Below, in pieces: positions 1 through 52,678 of a stretch of 64,000 nt of DNA (position 1 is its first letter; each line of letters starts with the position of its first letter). Location of the stretch: assembly GCA_046290225.1 (NCBI GenBank), contig JBKAGE010000038.1, positions 256,001-320,000 of the forward strand, read 5' to 3'. The position numbers and the translations under genes were made by a program. Source of the DNA: Bradymonadia bacterium (GTDB lineage: Bacteria > Myxococcota_A > Bradymonadia > UBA7976 > UBA1532). The notes beneath the pieces were generated by a model. The model had not been told where the DNA came from. It did no database searches and saw only the letters and a program-made list of their open reading frames with translations.

Positions 1-749
1 CGGCAGAGCTCTCTGCCGATCGCGTGGGTCTCATCTGCGCAGGTGATCCCGAGGCGGCGGCCTCAGGCTTCTTCAAGCTCGCCAGCGGCATCGCCAGCGA
101 CAAGCTCAAGCCCGATCTCGCCGCCTTCGCCCGTCAGGTGGAGAGCCTCGCCTCGGCCCCTGAGGCCCGGCAGAAGCCTCGCCCCGACGACGACACCCTC
201 GACTGCTTCAGCACGCACCCCTACAACCCGGTTCGGGTCCGGGCGGTGTGGGCCTTCAGCCGCTCGAAGCCCTACCTCGATTATGTGGGCCGTTCGAGCC
301 ACGATGCCCTGTCGATGGAGCAGGTCGAATCGATCATCGAGCGCGATCTCACCCTGATGGATCCGATCTACCTACAAGAGAAAGGCGACGACGCCGACGC
401 CCTGCGCCGCTTGCTGTTCACTGCAGGCATCCTCGTGGCCGACGCCTATCAAGGGGTGACGCAGAGCGAGCTCGAGGCCCTGGGCCTACTTCTCGGTGAG
501 GAGTACGCATCGGCCCCGGATGACATCGAGCTGGCCCGCAAGAACTTCCCCGGCCGCCTCGAGGCGGTGAAGGGGCTGCCCCTGGCGAACAAGGCCGCCC
601 TGATCCAGCACCTGACCATCATCGCCGCAGCTGACGGCGTGGTACAGGAGGAAGAGCTCCGGGTCATGGAGGATGTCGCCCATCAGCTCGAGGTCGATAT
701 TCGCATCATTCACGATACGCTTCGGGGATCGATGCACCCCCTCGATTAG
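1..749 (+). CDS. M48-family metallopeptidase with C-terminal TerB-like domain (5' partial)
   Basis: Frame open from the window edge reads AELSADRVGL (M48 ExxAD motif) and FSTHPYNPVRV (M48 THP motif). The C-terminus IAAADGVVQEEELRVMEDVAHQL resembles TerB helices. HExxH would lie upstream of the window. Confidence 0.7.
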   Translation, partial: AELSADRVGLICAGDPEAAASGFFKLASGIASDKLKPDLAAFARQVESLASAPEARQKPRPDDDTLDCFSTHPYNPVRVRAVWAFSRSKPYLDYVGRSSHDALSMEQVESIIERDLTLMDPIYLQEKGDDADALRRLLFTAGILVADAYQGVTQSELEALGLLLGEEYASAPDDIELARKNFPGRLEAVKGLPLANKAALIQHLTIIAAADGVVQEEELRVMEDVAHQLEVDIRIIHDTLRGSMHPLD

Positions 750-1153
750 AGAGAGTTTCGGGCACGGGCACGGGCACGGGCACGGGCACGAGTTGATTCG
801 GCTGTGGACAGTGCAGCCTGAGGCTGCATGTCTTGGAGCGAGTGTAGGCCTGCGTAGCCGGCCGGAGGGAGCGGAAAGACACCCGGAGGGCTGTCCACTG
901 GTCAACCTGACCCGTAACCCTACATGACTCCGCTCGTGGGTGTGTGATGGTGGAGGCTCTACTCAGCCCCATGTGTCTCTCATTGGAGGCTTTGTCCTCC
1001 ATACACCCCAAGACTTGAAACCTCAGGTCGTTCTGAAGCGCACCATCTCAGCCTCAATGACAACCATCGCCCTGAACCCAGGATGGGTCACGGGTCCACA
1101 CCCGAATCAACTCGTGCCCGTGCCCGTGCCCGTGCCCGTGCCCGAAACTCTCT
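750..1153 (+). repeat. Non-coding inverted-repeat element, copy 1: (GGGCAC)5 arms plus 188-nt conserved core (MITE/REPIN-like or structured RNA)
   Basis: 750-809 and 1094-1153 are reverse complements at 59/60 positions and each holds 5 hexamers. Core 909-1096 aligns without gaps to the reverse complement of 30771-30958. Confidence 0.9.
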
Positions 1154-30593: not shown

Positions 30594-30717
30594 GGCGCGT
30601 TCCTTTTGGACCCTGCACGGGCCCACCGGCAGTCTGACACATTCTGACGATGGGCTCACCTTCTGTGGGTGAGCTCACTGGGATCTACGTGAAATGGGGT
30701 GGTGCTCTTTTGGTAAG

Positions 30718-31017
30718 AGAGAGTTTGTCGGGCACGGGCACGGGCACGGGCACGAGTTGATACATATTCTGACCCGTGGCCCTTCCTGAACTCAGGGCGA
30801 AGGTTACAACTGAAGCTGAGATGATGTGTTGTTGAACGACCTGAGAGTTCAGGTCTTGGGGTGTATGGAGGCCAAAAGTCGCACTGAGCAAAGCGTGGGG
30901 CTGGATGAAGGCTCCACCATCACAAACCCATGAGCGGAGTCATATAGGACAACGGGTCCAGATATGTATCAACTCGTGCCCGTGCCCGTGCCCGTGCCCG
31001 TGCCCGAAAAACTCTCT
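30718..31017 (-). repeat. Non-coding inverted-repeat element, copy 2: (GGGCAC)4/5 arms plus 188-nt conserved core
   Basis: Arms 30718-30777 and 30952-31017 are complementary apart from one hexamer and a few mismatches. Core 30771-30958 is homologous to 909-1096 in reverse orientation. Confidence 0.9.
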
Positions 31018-33442
31018 ATTTAAGCTGCATTGCCGAGGTATCCACAGCCCACGCCTTACCGAACTGAGTAATGGTGGCCACGAGCTGGGCTTTCTCGATG
31101 TTCACGATGCCCTTGGGCACCGCGAGATACTTGAAGAAGGCGCTGTCACCGGGGCGATAACCCTGACCATTGCTGGGCACAGCCAGGGGGAGGTAGGCCT
31201 GCTTGCCGTATTTGTCGGTGAGGAGCAGGTAAGGGCTGGTGAAGCGGGTGGTGGCGATGTCGTACTTGCTGCTGAAGTTGATGCTCACATTGAGGTAGGG
31301 GAAGAGGTTGAGTACGGCGCAATCTGGACAGAGGGGCACTCGAGGCTGCGGGCCCACAGCACCAAGCGCATCACGACGCAGTCGGTCAGGCGGCTCACCC
31401 ACAATCTGTGCAGGGCCAAAGCGCACATCATCATTGTTGGTGCAGTCCGTCCAGTCTACGCATGCATCATCACTCGTACCTGGCGCGTTGGCGGTGCACT
31501 GAGGTGCCGGCTCGGCCCCCTCCGGATCATACCCTGGCGGATTCCCGGGGAACGCATCACACACCTCCAGCCACTCCGCACATCGATCGATGACATCAGG
31601 GCCTTGGCCTTGAGCCAGGCACCCAATGGCGGAGAGCAGCTCCCCACACTGCACCAGGTCATCAGCCGCCCCGACATTGAGAGCCCGCACTGGATATCCC
31701 TGCCATGTTGAACGGTTGAGGTCATATGCGGTCAGGTAGAGCAGATCGCTCAGCTGGGCCCCACTCAACCGGGGTACTAGAGGGTCTGCGCTCCGCGCAG
31801 CGCCCAGATATGCCAACGCCCGTGCGAGGGCGCCCGTGGTCAGGGCAGCAGACACCGAAGTGCCCGTGTATGCTTCTGGGGCACCCGCGAGCGCACCTTG
31901 GGGTGTGAACACGTGCGCCCCTGGTGCGACGAGGCGGGGCTCTGCCAAGGCTCGGGGGATCGACACACCTGTCGGGGTGCCACGGGCATTGATCGCGCCG
32001 ACAGCAAAAGACAGCGCCTCCCCCGCAACACATCCTTGCTGTTGATCAGACTTCACAGTGGTGCGGCTGTACTCACCAGGAAACAGCATTGGAGGCCGTG
32101 TAAGCTCTCCTCCGAGCCACCACCCATCTGTGCACGCGTCGAGGGGCTGGTTCTCATCCACCTTGTGCAACTCGGCCCGCTCACCGTTCAGTGGGCGATT
32201 GCCTGCAGCGGCAACGGCGAGGATCGGCCTCGCTGCAGTGTCCTGCTCCTGGGCGACAGCGAGCATGTAGCGCACCACGGCGCCAACTCCGTCCTCCTCT
32301 ATGGCACAGCCCGGGCCACGAAGCGTACGTACACGCTCGTATTCTGGTAGCCAGCCGAGGCTGAGGTTCAACAGCAGGGGCCGGGCGGGGTCGAGCCCGT
32401 ACACGGCCTCATCGATGGCCACACCCGTGAAGGCGGTGACCCCGACCCCTTCTGCGTCCATCACTTGCCAGGAGAAGATCTCTGCCGCTGTATCCGGCAC
32501 CATCTGACGGATAAAGCCCACCATGGCGTCACCATGCTCGTTCACCCCAGCAGCAGCAGGATCAGGGTAGCGCCCCACGACGTCCACAGTGGGGATCGCC
32601 GCGTTGGAGACCCCAGTGTCGATGAGAGCGATTTGAGGCAGATCCCCCGCTGGTGGAGCGGGGACCTGCTGAGCAGGAGCGACGCTCATATAGTCGAGGT
32701 GCCATCGATCGACCCCCGCCATCGGGCTGACGTTGCACGCCTCTCGCCCGATCTTCACCTGAGCGGCCTGAGCTGCGGTGAGACCATAGTCGGGGGCGAG
32801 CTGTGACACGATCTGACGCACCTGGGCGACAGCGTTGCATTGGGCGGGACCCAAGATGGGCAGGTAGGGATCCTGAGCGATGCCCTGGCCCACAAATCGA
32901 ATACGCCAGAACCGCTGATGGCCATCAGCACGCCGACCATTCACATCTCGAAAAGGCAACACCGACGTCACCTCAACATCGACGCCGTTGCCGATGGCTG
33001 TACGGCATGGATCCCCACACGCATCGGCAGCACAAAACCAGGACTCGTCCACCACCCCAGTGAGCGCATCGTCGAGCTCTGTTTGGAACGCGCCCAAGAG
33101 TGGGTTCTGGGGTACCTCACTCGGCGCAGGTAGCCAAAGTGGGAAGTCCACGAAGAGCACTCGGGCTTCAGCACAGCTGTAGGGCGCCTCCGGCTCACCC
33201 GCGATCCCCAAGCTGGGGGGGGATGGATCACAGGGCCCCGGCGCAGGCTCTTGAGGCGTAGCAGACTGTATACATTGATTCTGAGCAGCACTCTGGCCCG
33301 CGAGGAGCAGGCCCGTGATCATGAGCAACATCACACGTGAGTGCTGCATGAAGGCTGAATGTTGTCGTGCTCGGTGCATCTTCATCCTCTCCGTCACCTG
33401 ATGGGCCAGGGCCCCCAATGCCCTGAACCTACGCAGTTCCAC
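31016..33442 (-). CDS. Secreted S8 (subtilisin-like) serine protease
   Basis: Triad IALIDTG / EHGDAM / TGTSVSAA; oxyanion AAAGN; signal peptide ending LLAGQSAA. The true start is probably a downstream Met. Confidence 0.85.
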   Translation of the reverse strand: MELRRFRALGALAHQVTERMKMHRARQHSAFMQHSRVMLLMITGLLLAGQSAAQNQCIQSATPQEPAPGPCDPSPPSLGIAGEPEAPYSCAEARVLFVDFPLWLPAPSEVPQNPLLGAFQTELDDALTGVVDESWFCAADACGDPCRTAIGNGVDVEVTSVLPFRDVNGRRADGHQRFWRIRFVGQGIAQDPYLPILGPAQCNAVAQVRQIVSQLAPDYGLTAAQAAQVKIGREACNVSPMAGVDRWHLDYMSVAPAQQVPAPPAGDLPQIALIDTGVSNAAIPTVDVVGRYPDPAAAGVNEHGDAMVGFIRQMVPDTAAEIFSWQVMDAEGVGVTAFTGVAIDEAVYGLDPARPLLLNLSLGWLPEYERVRTLRGPGCAIEEDGVGAVVRYMLAVAQEQDTAARPILAVAAAGNRPLNGERAELHKVDENQPLDACTDGWWLGGELTRPPMLFPGEYSRTTVKSDQQQGCVAGEALSFAVGAINARGTPTGVSIPRALAEPRLVAPGAHVFTPQGALAGAPEAYTGTSVSAALTTGALARALAYLGAARSADPLVPRLSGAQLSDLLYLTAYDLNRSTWQGYPVRALNVGAADDLVQCGELLSAIGCLAQGQGPDVIDRCAEWLEVCDAFPGNPPGYDPEGAEPAPQCTANAPGTSDDACVDWTDCTNNDDVRFGPAQIVGEPPDRLRRDALGAVGPQPRVPLCPDCAVLNLFPYLNVSINFSSKYDIATTRFTSPYLLLTDKYGKQAYLPLAVPSNGQGYRPGDSAFFKYLAVPKGIVNIEKAQLVATITQFGKAWAVDTSAMQLK

Positions 33443-41202: not shown

Positions 41203-42502
41203 CCTCTTCGTCGGCGTCGAGCAGCGTCTGGGCGCCCCCCATCACCCGCGCCCCAGCGTCGACGGCGTCGATTTGAGTCTCACCCGAGAGCGCCTGCTCC
41301 GTGAGCAACGCCACCCACGACTTCACGAAGATGCGCCGGTGGCTCACCTCGAACTGGGCCTCAGAGGCCTCTTCGGCGAGGGCCCGCAGGTTTCGGCCCT
41401 GCACCTCAGGGTCGAAGCGCCGTTTTCGGGCGATGGAGAAGACCTCCAGAATTCGGGCCCCGATGGCCTCGAGCAGCTTCGCAGGGGGCAGGTCGAGGGC
41501 CTCGAGATCGATGAGGGCCGACTGCGGGCTGGTCACCGAGAGGGGCACGGGGCTCGACAGCCGCTGCTGCAGCGCGGGGTACTCGGGCACCACGTTCCGC
41601 AAAAACTCCGGCGGCACGGCGTAGGCCACCATGACCCCCGGCAGCGCCGACTTGCCGCACAGATCCACCATCTCCCGCAGATTGTCCGTGAGGCGGGTGC
41701 GGTTGCGGGTGGTGGCCCCGATGCTCAGGTTGCGGTCGAGCTCGTCGAAGAGCAGCACGGTGCCGGTGAACTCGAGGCCCTTGAGGGCCTGACACACACC
41801 CCGCAGCATGGCGAAGGCGTTGCTCTTGGTGATCGATTCGAAGACCCCCACCTCGCGGTGACTGCTCGGCGGCACCTCTTCACCGAGCAGCCAGGCGGCG
41901 AGTACATCTTGCTTGCGCAGATCGTCGTCGAGCACCGCGAGGCCATACTCGGAGATGGCGTTGCGCAGAGAAGGGCTCTCCACAGGCAGGTTGCGCACGG
42001 TGCGGTAGAGCCACGCCCGGACCGCCCGATCGCCGTGCTCGTCCCGACGGGCCTCCACGAGATCCCGCAGCAGATCGGGCAGCCCCGTGGTGGGCAGCAG
42101 CGGCTCGTCACCGGGGGGCGGCGCCCGCAGGGCCTTCACCACGGCCCGATAGACCGCCAGGGGCTCGTGGAACGGACACTCGGAGGGCGAGAGCCCCACA
42201 TAGGCGCTGGCATAGCCCGAGGCCCAGGCGAGATCTCGCAGGCACATCAGGAAGTGGGTCTTGCCTCCGCCGTAGTAGGCCTGCACCAGCTTGAAGGTGG
42301 ATCCCCCGGCAGGGAGCAGCATGTCGAGATACTCGTCGCGGATCACGTCGAGGTAGGTGTGGTTGCCCACGTTGATGTGAGCCACACCACGCTCTGGAGG
42401 TGTACCCGTCTCTCCGAGGCTCTGGATGATGCGCATGGCCTGGGGCCTGGAGAGCGCGTCTACGGCGTCGGTGGCTGTTGCTACGTGAATGTCATCGCCC
42501 AT
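41180..42502 (-). CDS. BrxD/DUF2791-like P-loop ATPase
   Basis: IIQSLGETGTPP...NVG, FKLVQAYYGGGKTHFL (Walker A), GTVLLFDELD (Walker B) and YPALQQRL. Confidence 0.82.
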   Translation of the reverse strand: MGDDIHVATATDAVDALSRPQAMRIIQSLGETGTPPERGVAHINVGNHTYLDVIRDEYLDMLLPAGGSTFKLVQAYYGGGKTHFLMCLRDLAWASGYASAYVGLSPSECPFHEPLAVYRAVVKALRAPPPGDEPLLPTTGLPDLLRDLVEARRDEHGDRAVRAWLYRTVRNLPVESPSLRNAISEYGLAVLDDDLRKQDVLAAWLLGEEVPPSSHREVGVFESITKSNAFAMLRGVCQALKGLEFTGTVLLFDELDRNLSIGATTRNRTRLTDNLREMVDLCGKSALPGVMVAYAVPPEFLRNVVPEYPALQQRLSSPVPLSVTSPQSALIDLEALDLPPAKLLEAIGARILEVFSIARKRRFDPEVQGRNLRALAEEASEAQFEVSHRRIFVKSWVALLTEQALSGETQIDAVDAGARVMGGAQTLLDADEEDDGFDDF

Positions 42503-51625: not shown

Positions 51626-52678
51626 TCAGGGCGACAACACATAGTCGGGTTTTGGGCCTTGCCCCTGACCCAGCGCCCACAGCAACCCCGCCACACACCT
51701 GCCGGCCATCCCCACGTCAGCCTGTGGGGAGAGGCGCGTCTCTTCGGTACCCGATCCGAAATGGTGAAACACACGCACGCGATCGGCGAGCTCGGGGTGC
51801 AGCAGTGGGCTGTGCTGCGGCAACGGCTCTGTCTCGAAGACGTCGAGGGCCACGCCACCGAGATGGCCGCCCCTCAACACCTGGGCGAGGGCCTCTTCGT
51901 CCACCACTGCCCCCCGGGCAGTGTTCACCAACAGCGCAGAGGGCTTCAGCCGGGCGAGGGCCGAAGCGTCGATCAGGTGCCGGGTCTCGTCGGTGAGGGG
52001 CACGTGCAGCGAGAGCGCGTCAGACTCGGCGAGCACAGTGTCGAGGGTGCCATAGCGTGCAGTTCGCGGCCTTTGTGCGCCTGTGGACGCGAGGGTGTCC
52101 ATCACCAACTGCAGCGCGGCGAGGAACGTCGGATCTTCGTGGCGGGGATCACACAGCAACAGATCGACGTCGAGGGCGGCACATCGAGCGGCGAAGGCCC
52201 TGCCGATGCGGCCCAGCCCCACCACACCGATGGTCATGCCCGCCACCTCACGACCGAGGAAGGGCTGTGAAGGGTGCCAGCTCGACCATGCACCATCGCG
52301 GACGAGGGCTTCAGAGGCCCGCAACCTGCGCGCCAGAGCCCCGAGGGCGAAGAGCGCGAACTCTGCCGTGGCCCCCGTGAGCACGCCTGGCGTGTGGGTC
52401 ACCGTGATCCCCAGTCGGTGGGCGGCATCGACGTCGATGTTGTCGAGCCCCACGGCACACTGGGCCACCACCTTCAGATGAGGCACCCCCACCTGGAGCA
52501 TCTGCGCGTCGATCGGATCCCGCAGCGTGGTGATCAGCCCCGCCACCCCGCTGCGCAGCTGGGCCTCGATGACTGAACGCTCGGGGGGCTCCGGTGAAGG
52601 ATGTACCTCCAGCGTGTACCCCGCGTCGCGGATCTGCGAGAGCGCTGGCCCCAGATCACACGTGGCGTATACCCTCAC
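51626..52678 (-). CDS. D-isomer-specific 2-hydroxyacid dehydrogenase (glyoxylate reductase-like)
   Basis: AVGLDNIDV, GVVGLGRIG, LVNTARG, ALDVFETEP and HHFGSGT. Confidence 0.92.
   Translation of the reverse strand: MRVYATCDLGPALSQIRDAGYTLEVHPSPEPPERSVIEAQLRSGVAGLITTLRDPIDAQMLQVGVPHLKVVAQCAVGLDNIDVDAAHRLGITVTHTPGVLTGATAEFALFALGALARRLRASEALVRDGAWSSWHPSQPFLGREVAGMTIGVVGLGRIGRAFAARCAALDVDLLLCDPRHEDPTFLAALQLVMDTLASTGAQRPRTARYGTLDTVLAESDALSLHVPLTDETRHLIDASALARLKPSALLVNTARGAVVDEEALAQVLRGGHLGGVALDVFETEPLPQHSPLLHPELADRVRVFHHFGSGTEETRLSPQADVGMAGRCVAGLLWALGQGQGPKPDYVLSP

Follow-up and report, generated by a model that had tools for sequence, protein, structure and literature searches.

The 64,000-nucleotide (nt) stretch analyzed here, referred to as the window (contig JBKAGE010000038.1, positions 256,001 to 320,000, of the Bradymonadia bacterium assembly GCA_046290225.1), harbors two copies of a palindromic element whose arms contain tandem GGGCAC hexamers. 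The element is a multi-copy, non-coding, modular palindrome sitting behind genes, and the two window copies are probably members of a genome-specific family of about sixty modular foldback repeats, of the kind represented by MITEs (miniature inverted-repeat transposable elements), bacterial interspersed mosaic elements (BIMEs) and BOX elements, which would have spread as non-autonomous elements.

Copy 1 (positions 748..1153, + strand, core in + orientation) is 406 nt long and lies at the end of a TerB-domain gene (Pfam PF05099), the 3' part of which spans 3..749 on the + strand. Its parts, all read on the + strand, are a left linker AGAGAGAGTTTC (748..759), whose first bases finish the TAG stop codon (747-749) of the upstream gene; a left hexamer array (GGGCAC)5 (760..789), which constitutes a G3N3 run of the G-quadruplex type; GAGTTGAT followed by a 9-nt variable stem segment (790..806); one unit of an optional hairpin module of about 100 nt, designated H (803..908), which occurs elsewhere in two to three tandem units and is missing from copy 2; a 188-nt core (909..1096) bounded by the inner stem GACCCGT.. 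/ ..ACGGGTC; a right variable stem segment followed by ATCAACTC (1097..1113); a right array (GTGCCC)5 (1114..1143); and a right linker GAAACTCTCT (1144..1153). Unlike most copies, it has no outer stem. A 118-aa open reading frame (ORF; 1291-1647) without a Pfam match lies directly downstream, and is not kept beside the TerB-like gene in relatives. Copy 2 (30716..31017, - strand, core in - orientation) is a whole standard element, composed of a linker (30716-30729), (GGGCAC)4 (30730-30753), GAGTTGAT with its variable stem (30754-30770), the core (30771-30958), a variable stem with ATCAACTC (30959-30975), (GTGCCC)5 (30976-31005) and a second linker (31006-31017). It is abutted by the 3' end of an 808-aa subtilase (S8 peptidase) gene (31016..33442, - strand), the stop codon of which occupies 31016-31018 on the - strand.

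A first-pass annotation of this DNA had described the element as a two-copy structure and proposed that it might be a guide-bearing RNA. Its measurements were reproduced: 59 of 60 positions pair between the arms at 750-809 and 1094-1153, and a gap-free alignment of the core at 909-1096 with the reverse complement of 30771-30958 has 145 of 188 positions identical, transitions accounting for 28 of the 43 differences. The arms of copy 2 extend over 55 nt at 91% complementarity. In both copies the palindrome extends inward past the array via GAGTTGAT and the 9-nt segment, which differs between the two copies and pairs within each. The predicted folds reach -244 kcal/mol for copy 1 (z = -13.2 against shuffles) and -160 kcal/mol for copy 2 (z = -13.5), and (GGGCAC)3 occurs 11 times in the window and in none of 100 shuffled versions.

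The genome to which the window belongs is an 8.58-Mb draft in 83 contigs, with 64% G+C and 99.4% complete by markers. Genome-wide, these 83 contigs contain 127 arrays of at least three exact GGGCAC units and, if the pattern tolerates a few variant units, 129 arms that read AGAGAGTTTC-(GGGCAC)n-GAGTT, with 45 left/right arm pairs. BLAST searches with the core returned 54 matches at 68-100% identity, and a sequence profile of the core returned 65, a number that includes copies cut short at contig ends as well as faint echoes of the palindromic ends on the reverse strand. True copy number is somewhat higher, because many contigs begin or end inside a copy. The measurements of the first-pass annotation are thus correct and its framing is wrong, since there are about sixty copies rather than two, and the element is a repeat and not a guide RNA. 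About ten contig ends share one sequence of about 70 nt that adjoins no more than three hexamer units (e.g. contig 51: 1-70; contig 5: 76773-76843; contig 37: 413380-413448). As a marine metagenome run contains this junction too, in the form of a loose end, it must represent a real repeated neighbor of the arm that breaks the assembly, and not an adapter. The elements are not an assembly artefact either, given how many independent flanks they have and that two other public runs contain related contigs. Three sequencing runs yielded matches with shares of 0.06-0.14, as contigs only and with no piece spanning the element; one RNA library provided a 36-nt array contig plus the downstream gene.

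Searches of the whole genome and of relatives, as the first-pass annotation had suggested, yielded many further copies at home and did not recover the core in relatives. The arm pattern was found in none of 40 relatives, and an order-level BLAST search of 31 genomes did not find the core outside its own genome, only the array part being matched elsewhere. The core profile, with 93 candidates scored per genome, produced nothing in 27 family genomes but one match of 21.7 bits (E 7e-4), taken as chance. In a collection of genomes from 185,579 species the arm pattern was detected at 6 loci, none with the element, five of them apparently coding or chance arrays and the sixth a short hairpin in a Phycisphaera metagenome-assembled genome, and an 18-nt core block searched in a metagenome collection gave 3 chance matches without further likeness. 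The array itself has a wider distribution. Two of three sister-genus genomes contain about 97 and 114 overlapping (GGGCAC)3 matches, and the third none; there, dozens of (GTGCCC)5 ... (GGGCAC)5 pairs lie 90-450 nt apart in the opposite order, with the C-rich array first and unrelated sequence between. The hexamer array is older than the repeat family of the window, and the occurrence of sister-genus arrays around different sequence indicates that the array outlives its cargo. The sister-genus arrays adjoin (GGTCAA)n and (GGGCAA)n arrays as well as tandem units of a hexamer array plus a conserved spacer of about 52 nt, and some sit just upstream of gene starts. In the literature, the repeat string GGGCACGGGCAC was absent from the full texts searched, and nothing was found on repeats of the Bradymonadales lineage or on quadruplex-armed bacterial MITEs, with most subscription journals and ISfinder lying outside the scope of both searches.

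Each element forms a single long, imperfect palindrome. Its outermost layer, where present, is an outer stem; inward of this come a linker, then the hexamer array and GAGTTGAT, next a hypervariable stem of 9 nt and an inner stem GACCCGTGGCCC, and finally a cargo. Outer stems are GC-rich, 18-30 nt long and of three related types; in our own assignment, the 129 arms divide into 23 of class A, 12 of class B, 45 of class C and 49 of class none, the last including some contig-end artefacts. The linker reads AGAGAGTTT(T)C or GATCAGTTTTC, the array is (GGGCAC)3-7, with five units in 97 of 129 arms, and GAGTT follows it in 120 of 129. The cargo may be the core of about 190 nt, one to three tandem hairpin modules of about 100 nt or, in single cases, a gene. 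Inner lengths of 209-225 nt correspond to standard elements holding the core only, which are about 300 nt long overall, and those of 321-335 and 425 nt to elements with one or two H modules; the module itself gave 34 BLAST matches (median identity 94%), which group into 19 arrays with one to three units in tandem. Two elements are much longer. An inner length of 971 nt on contig 72 is due to a PF05635 gene (141 aa, E 3e-21) flanked on either side by two H modules, and one of 1499 nt on contig 50 to a complete core interrupted by a single-copy DDE_Tnp_1 insertion sequence (IS). The fixed length reported in the first-pass annotation is therefore only roughly right, as inner lengths range from 215 to 225 nt over 30 standard copies, with 1-nt insertions or deletions (indels) between them.

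Arms also occur singly, as solo arms before other sequence, and in 12 of 129 arms the next sequence, at most 400 nt inward, belongs to a second palindromic repeat family. Members of this second family are about 170-230 nt long and are marked by GTCGTCGTGAGG and a long perfect hairpin (-142 kcal/mol), as on contig 75 at about 41890-42120; 62 BLAST matches place it at about 60 sites in the genome, it is unrelated to the GGGCAC family and it has no match in Rfam. A variant arm, found at 14 places (e.g. on contig 72 at 92-140 and on contig 6 at 70152), consists of two hexamer units followed directly by GGACTCTCTATCAA, a different inner partner for the same linker. On contig 10 (about 51700-51760), three tandem copies of the 11-nt unit CTCGCTTCGGT make up a C-type outer stem, suggesting growth by slippage for the outer layer too. 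The possibility that outer stems are pre-existing repetitive extragenic palindromic (REP) targets was rejected, as by our tally of the listed contexts their motifs mostly adjoin arms (about 28/42, 13/22 and at least 40/130). Both genes of the genome encoding PF05635, the 23S rRNA intervening sequence (IVS) protein or four-helix-bundle family, sit inside long inverted repeats, one within GGGCAC arms and duplicated H modules (contig 72: 82299-83329) and the other within a different inverted repeat of about 300 nt (contig 77: about 106900-108100). Both loci are IVS-like hairpin elements outside rRNA.

Several lines of analysis addressed what the core might encode. No frame on either strand is free of stop codons in more than 7 of the 30 standard copies, copy lengths differ by 1-2 nt and single-base indels separate copies. 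The core is thus not coding, and the description of a non-coding, non-autonomous repeat in the first-pass annotation is borne out by copies that are dispersed, palindromic and intergenic. The statement there that no transposase lies inside the element also holds for the window copies. A more specific reading, that the core is a structured guide RNA resembling the bridge or seek RNAs of IS110/IS1111 elements or an omega RNA, with its variable windows acting as programmable guides, draws on the alternation of conserved blocks with variable windows at near-fixed length and on three small hairpins that can be drawn from the consensus. These internal hairpins, which had been thought to be kept in both copies, are 82-84% paired across copies, but changes mostly break pairs, and their covariation score (0.075) is at the level of shuffles (0.070; 70 of 500 shuffles score as high). 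RNAalifold keeps only the terminal stem, and an all-against-all covariation scan identified no further helix with real covariation. For the terminal stem, in contrast, 10 pairs changed on both sides in 63 cells of the alignment of 30 standard copies, which 0 of 500 shuffles reached. Mismatches in this stem comprise 27 G:U against 16 A:C by our tally, showing no clear strand bias, and mismatch types therefore do not decide between RNA and DNA.

Nor is there an excess of guide-like matches. Over 36 elements, the longest exact match between the central core and its own flanks averages 8.47 nt, versus 8.39 nt for the flanks of other copies, and that between the central core and its own variable stems 5.75 nt, versus 5.59 nt for those of others. 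Rfam returned no match at gathering thresholds in the window and six further loci, placing the element in no described RNA family, and a permissive scan gave only three chance matches to snoRNAs (E 0.1-0.5), all below threshold. No sigma-70-like promoter was detected in or beside copy 1. Neither the recombinase of IS110 elements (PF01548) nor the Y1 transposase (PF01797) was found in the genome, and its TnpB loci share nothing with the element. Together with the 1-nt indels between copies, these results leave the guide-RNA interpretation, including the IS110/IS1111 link put forward initially, with next to no credibility.

The genomic position of the elements is biased. Genes were called on both sides of 36 elements, and these flanking genes are convergent in 19 cases, tandem in 13 and divergent in 4, compared to a background of 310 convergent pairs out of 1742 (18%) on the six largest contigs (Fisher p = 3e-6). 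Between the array and the closest 3' end of a gene there are typically 10-60 nt, which puts this gene end at the edge of the element or a few bases from it, and in both window copies the stop codon overlaps the terminal (T)AGAGAG of the element. In several other copies a TAA or TAG is likewise fused to the element end. Orthologs of the TerB-like gene are present in 10 of 27 family genomes, and in all nine loci fetched, which belong to other genera, the gene ends in HP[IL]D and TGA and is followed by ordinary sequence without an element. The window gene has the same protein end, followed by a TAG whose AG belongs to the element. The element is thus absent from the orthologous gene end in other genera, and the TAG found here, as opposed to TGA in nine of nine relatives, indicates that the element appears to supply or replace the stop codon. 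Downstream synteny has been lost in the relatives, so an exact empty site at the TerB-like gene cannot be reconstructed; for the neighbor of copy 2, orthologs were limited to 3 distant matches at 42-46% identity. The pattern points to elements that would have been inserted secondarily just behind stop codons, chiefly between convergent genes, and that would have persisted where a long hairpin is harmless or useful, at converging 3' ends. Transcript 3' ends would then carry them as perfect hairpins of 60-100 bp, a putative substrate of RNase III by analogy with IVSs.

The same positional data bear on the notion that the elements are invertons, in which a recombinase or RecA flips the core between the arms and thereby changes the expression of neighboring genes. 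Near-perfect inverted repeats of 60-100 bp around a short asymmetric core would suit such a system, as would the two orientations of the core among the 39 pairs that have one (21 + and 18 -). Yet the core contains no promoter-like site, the elements lie behind genes and not in front of them, and no invertase gene is adjacent at the loci whose ORFs were listed. The sole joint of the 'opposite strands' type comes from one low-depth metagenome contig and counts as no evidence, so that we deem inversion improbable.

The arms and the core have diverged to very different extents. Of 611 hexamer units, 602 are exactly GGGCAC, and only 9 of 3666 positions depart from the hexamer (0.25%), which is a minimum, given that the search pattern admits only some variant units. 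In the central 170 nt of the core, on the other hand, mean pairwise identity among 30 copies is 77.6% (range 64-94%), a divergence of about 22%, and the four-gamete test finds all four combinations in 1130 of 1431 informative column pairs, including 176 of 250 pairs within 15 nt. Left and right arms of the same element also agree far beyond chance. Of the 45 pairs, 15 have one and the same 9-nt variable allele on both sides (random pairing gives 2.3 on average and at most 8 in 2000 permutations), 25 the same outer class (13 on average, at most 23) and 19 the same linker (5.9 on average, at most 16). No fewer than eight variable alleles are found as perfect palindromes. Agreement in the outer layer is independent of agreement in the inner one: of 33 pairs, 13 agree only outside, 9 only inside, 6 in both layers and 5 in neither. 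Tandem arrays and long inverted repeats are known to homogenize by slippage and conversion without selection. We infer that near-identical arms and matched left and right alleles stem from gene conversion, both from arm to arm and from copy to copy. Identical arm segments of 40-50 nt in every copy would seed conversion, and the 78%-identical core, lacking such seeds, would drift and turn mosaic, with the outer and inner layers shuffling independently.

Much of this evidence may also be interpreted as the signature of a host-selected cis element, in which the arms are functional and under purifying selection in each copy, and the core is a passenger. The arms could then act as a bidirectional 3'-end hairpin (a terminator without U-tract, an mRNA stabilizer or an RNase III site), as a G-quadruplex block met first by transcription from either side, or as a protein-binding array. 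Besides the gap in divergence, this explanation can invoke the near-constant GAGTT after the array, the enrichment of elements at gene 3' ends and between convergent genes, the solo arms that precede other cargo, at times the second palindromic family, and the (GGGCAC)5 arrays that surround quite different sequence in two of three sister-genus genomes. The divergence gap, the solo arms and the sister-genus arrays fit host selection as well as they fit conversion. However, no terminator was called at the arms and no U-tract follows the stem, the opposite array order in the sister genus argues against one fixed polarity-dependent role, and homogenization of arrays and inverted repeats can proceed without selection, as noted above. 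We therefore treat host selection on the arms as a tentative and rather doubtful alternative.

An enzyme that might have mobilized the family was sought in the genome. Searches of the genome with PF01548 (DEDD recombinase of IS110; the control was positive in 6 of 14 genomes), PF01797 (Y1 transposase of IS200 and of the REP-associated tyrosine transposases, RAYTs) and PF13358 (IS630) all gave 0 matches, and one for IS91 came out empty but is uninformative, given that its control found nothing anywhere. Four TnpB (Cas12f1-like_TNB) genes are located on contigs 35, 64 and 45; their loci contain no arrays and show no likeness to the element beyond chance matches of 15 nt. Over about 1.3 kb, three of the genes show 86-88% identity to one another and so point to a small family of the IS1341 type. 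On contig 50 (55594-57092) a single-copy IS of about 1.28 kb, encoding a 392-aa DDE_Tnp_1 transposase, is nested in an otherwise complete element; it was rejected as a parent, being single-copy and interrupting a complete core. Integron attC sites, retron msr-msd and diversity-generating retroelements were considered and dropped, as neither a cassette array nor a reverse transcriptase or integrase lies beside the copies inspected. TA precedes the end in about 15 of about 40 arms without outer stem, as judged by eye, and on both sides in only 1 of 5 pairs.

A number of these observations weigh against the interpretation of the family as non-autonomous foldback repeats that have spread by mobility. 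No autonomous element with the same ends was found in the 83-contig draft, where repeats may be unassembled, and without a matching transposase in the assembly the family may be defunct, or something unrecognized may move it in trans. The motif GAGAGTTT occurs without arrays in two inverted pairs in the genome, and the one inspected surrounds a tyrosine recombinase and a pentapeptide protein and bears no further likeness to the element. Inspection of all flanks by eye, including those of the 5 pairs without outer stem, revealed no consistent target-site duplication, and the comparison of gene ends, limited to other genera, offers no empty site at close range, which would be the direct proof of mobility. 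The genes underlying the positional bias were called with a home-made filter on third-position G+C content (GC3) that missed at least the S8 peptidase gene beside copy 2. Lastly, purifying selection acting on every arm, and with it a host function, would account just as well for arms that have diverged roughly 70-fold less than the core. We nevertheless favor spread as non-autonomous repeats as the probable origin of the family. A more radical variant would regard the arms as the living part: a (GGGCAC)5 hairpin scaffold, common to this genome and a sister genus and an extragenic cousin of the 23S rRNA IVS, that carries changeable cargo (the core, H arrays or a PF05635 gene), is perpetuated by hairpin-dependent copying that rebuilds one arm from the other, and is kept by the host as a G-quadruplex or double-stranded RNA signal at 3' ends. 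If arms were rebuilt in this manner, the matched variable stems, the lack of target duplication and the lack of a transposase would all be explained; we consider this variant unlikely.

For annotation purposes, one repeat family explains about sixty intergenic stretches and many contig breaks in this genome, which should not be taken for small RNA genes or guide RNAs. The family also offers a natural experiment contrasting concerted evolution of palindromes with selection on hairpin or G-quadruplex elements at gene ends, and it links the 'IVS protein' genes (PF05635) with hairpin elements that are extragenic. Should the arms turn out to have a function, they would constitute a new type of 3'-end signal in the little-studied predatory lineage Bradymonadia. 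A palindrome built in layers, with hexamer-bearing arms that evolve in concert around a mosaic core, is unusual, but taken alone it does not open up any long-standing question.

Compared with known systems, the family has the small size (below about 600 bp), non-coding nature, terminal inverted repeats and many dispersed copies of MITEs, but neither a target-site duplication nor a related autonomous IS with the same ends was found. Correia elements of Neisseria (Correia repeat enclosed elements, CREE, or Neisseria miniature insertion sequences, NEMIS) and the enterobacterial repetitive intergenic consensus sequences (ERIC), or intergenic repeat units (IRU), of enterobacteria are short, non-coding, dispersed hairpin repeats with terminal inverted repeats; such MITEs lie beside genes, are co-transcribed with them and have size variants that arise from internal insertions. 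The window family resembles them in being short, non-coding, dispersed, hairpin-forming and gene-adjacent, and departs from them in its layered arms of 60-100 nt with tandem (GGGCAC)5, in variable alleles common to the left and right sides, and in that neither a TA or other target duplication nor a parent IS was found for it.

With regard to the guide-RNA systems, the likeness to the bridge (seek) RNAs of IS110/IS1111 is outward only, extending to a length of about 190 nt and to conserved blocks with variable windows; no cognate recombinase, covarying loops or guide-target match was found for the window family, and long terminal inverted repeats are not known as an IS110 feature. Derivatives of IS200/IS605, such as palindrome-associated transposable elements (PATEs) and omega RNAs, differ in having a Y1 transposase or a TnpB locus that shares their ends, neither of which was found in this genome.

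Closer parallels exist among mosaic repeats. BOX elements of Streptococcus pneumoniae follow the scheme boxA-boxB(n)-boxC, and by build the window family is similar, in that its end modules pair and an internal module occurs in variable tandem number (the H module, one to three times), although the host belongs to another phylum and a hexamer array and a 190-nt core are added. BIMEs of E. coli and its relatives are mosaics of palindromic REP units (20-40 nt) and linkers, extragenic and located at 3' ends or between convergent genes. REP elements are among the subjects treated in PMC3733652 and PMC1525189. The window family is, like BIMEs, an extragenic mosaic of palindromic modules at gene 3' ends, and it differs from REP and BIME sequences in its larger units (60-100 nt) and in the absence of a RAYT/Y1 gene (PF01797) from the genome. 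The 23S rRNA IVS is described in PMC4990558 as a selfish hairpin that has terminal inverted repeats pairing into a long stem, a target of RNase III cleavage, and that optionally contains an S23p/PF05635 ORF. The contig 72 element shares this long terminal stem around a PF05635 gene. Unlike IVSs, which reside in helix 25 or 45 of 23S rRNA, the 45 paired elements are located among genes for proteins (no copy was sought in the rRNA operons), and most elements carry no ORF. Since no target duplication, parent IS or RAYT was found for it, the family is filed as a palindromic interspersed repeat and not in any named family; judged by these likenesses, it appears closest to Correia/ERIC-type MITEs and to BIME/BOX mosaics in behavior and position, and recalls the 23S rRNA IVS in build.

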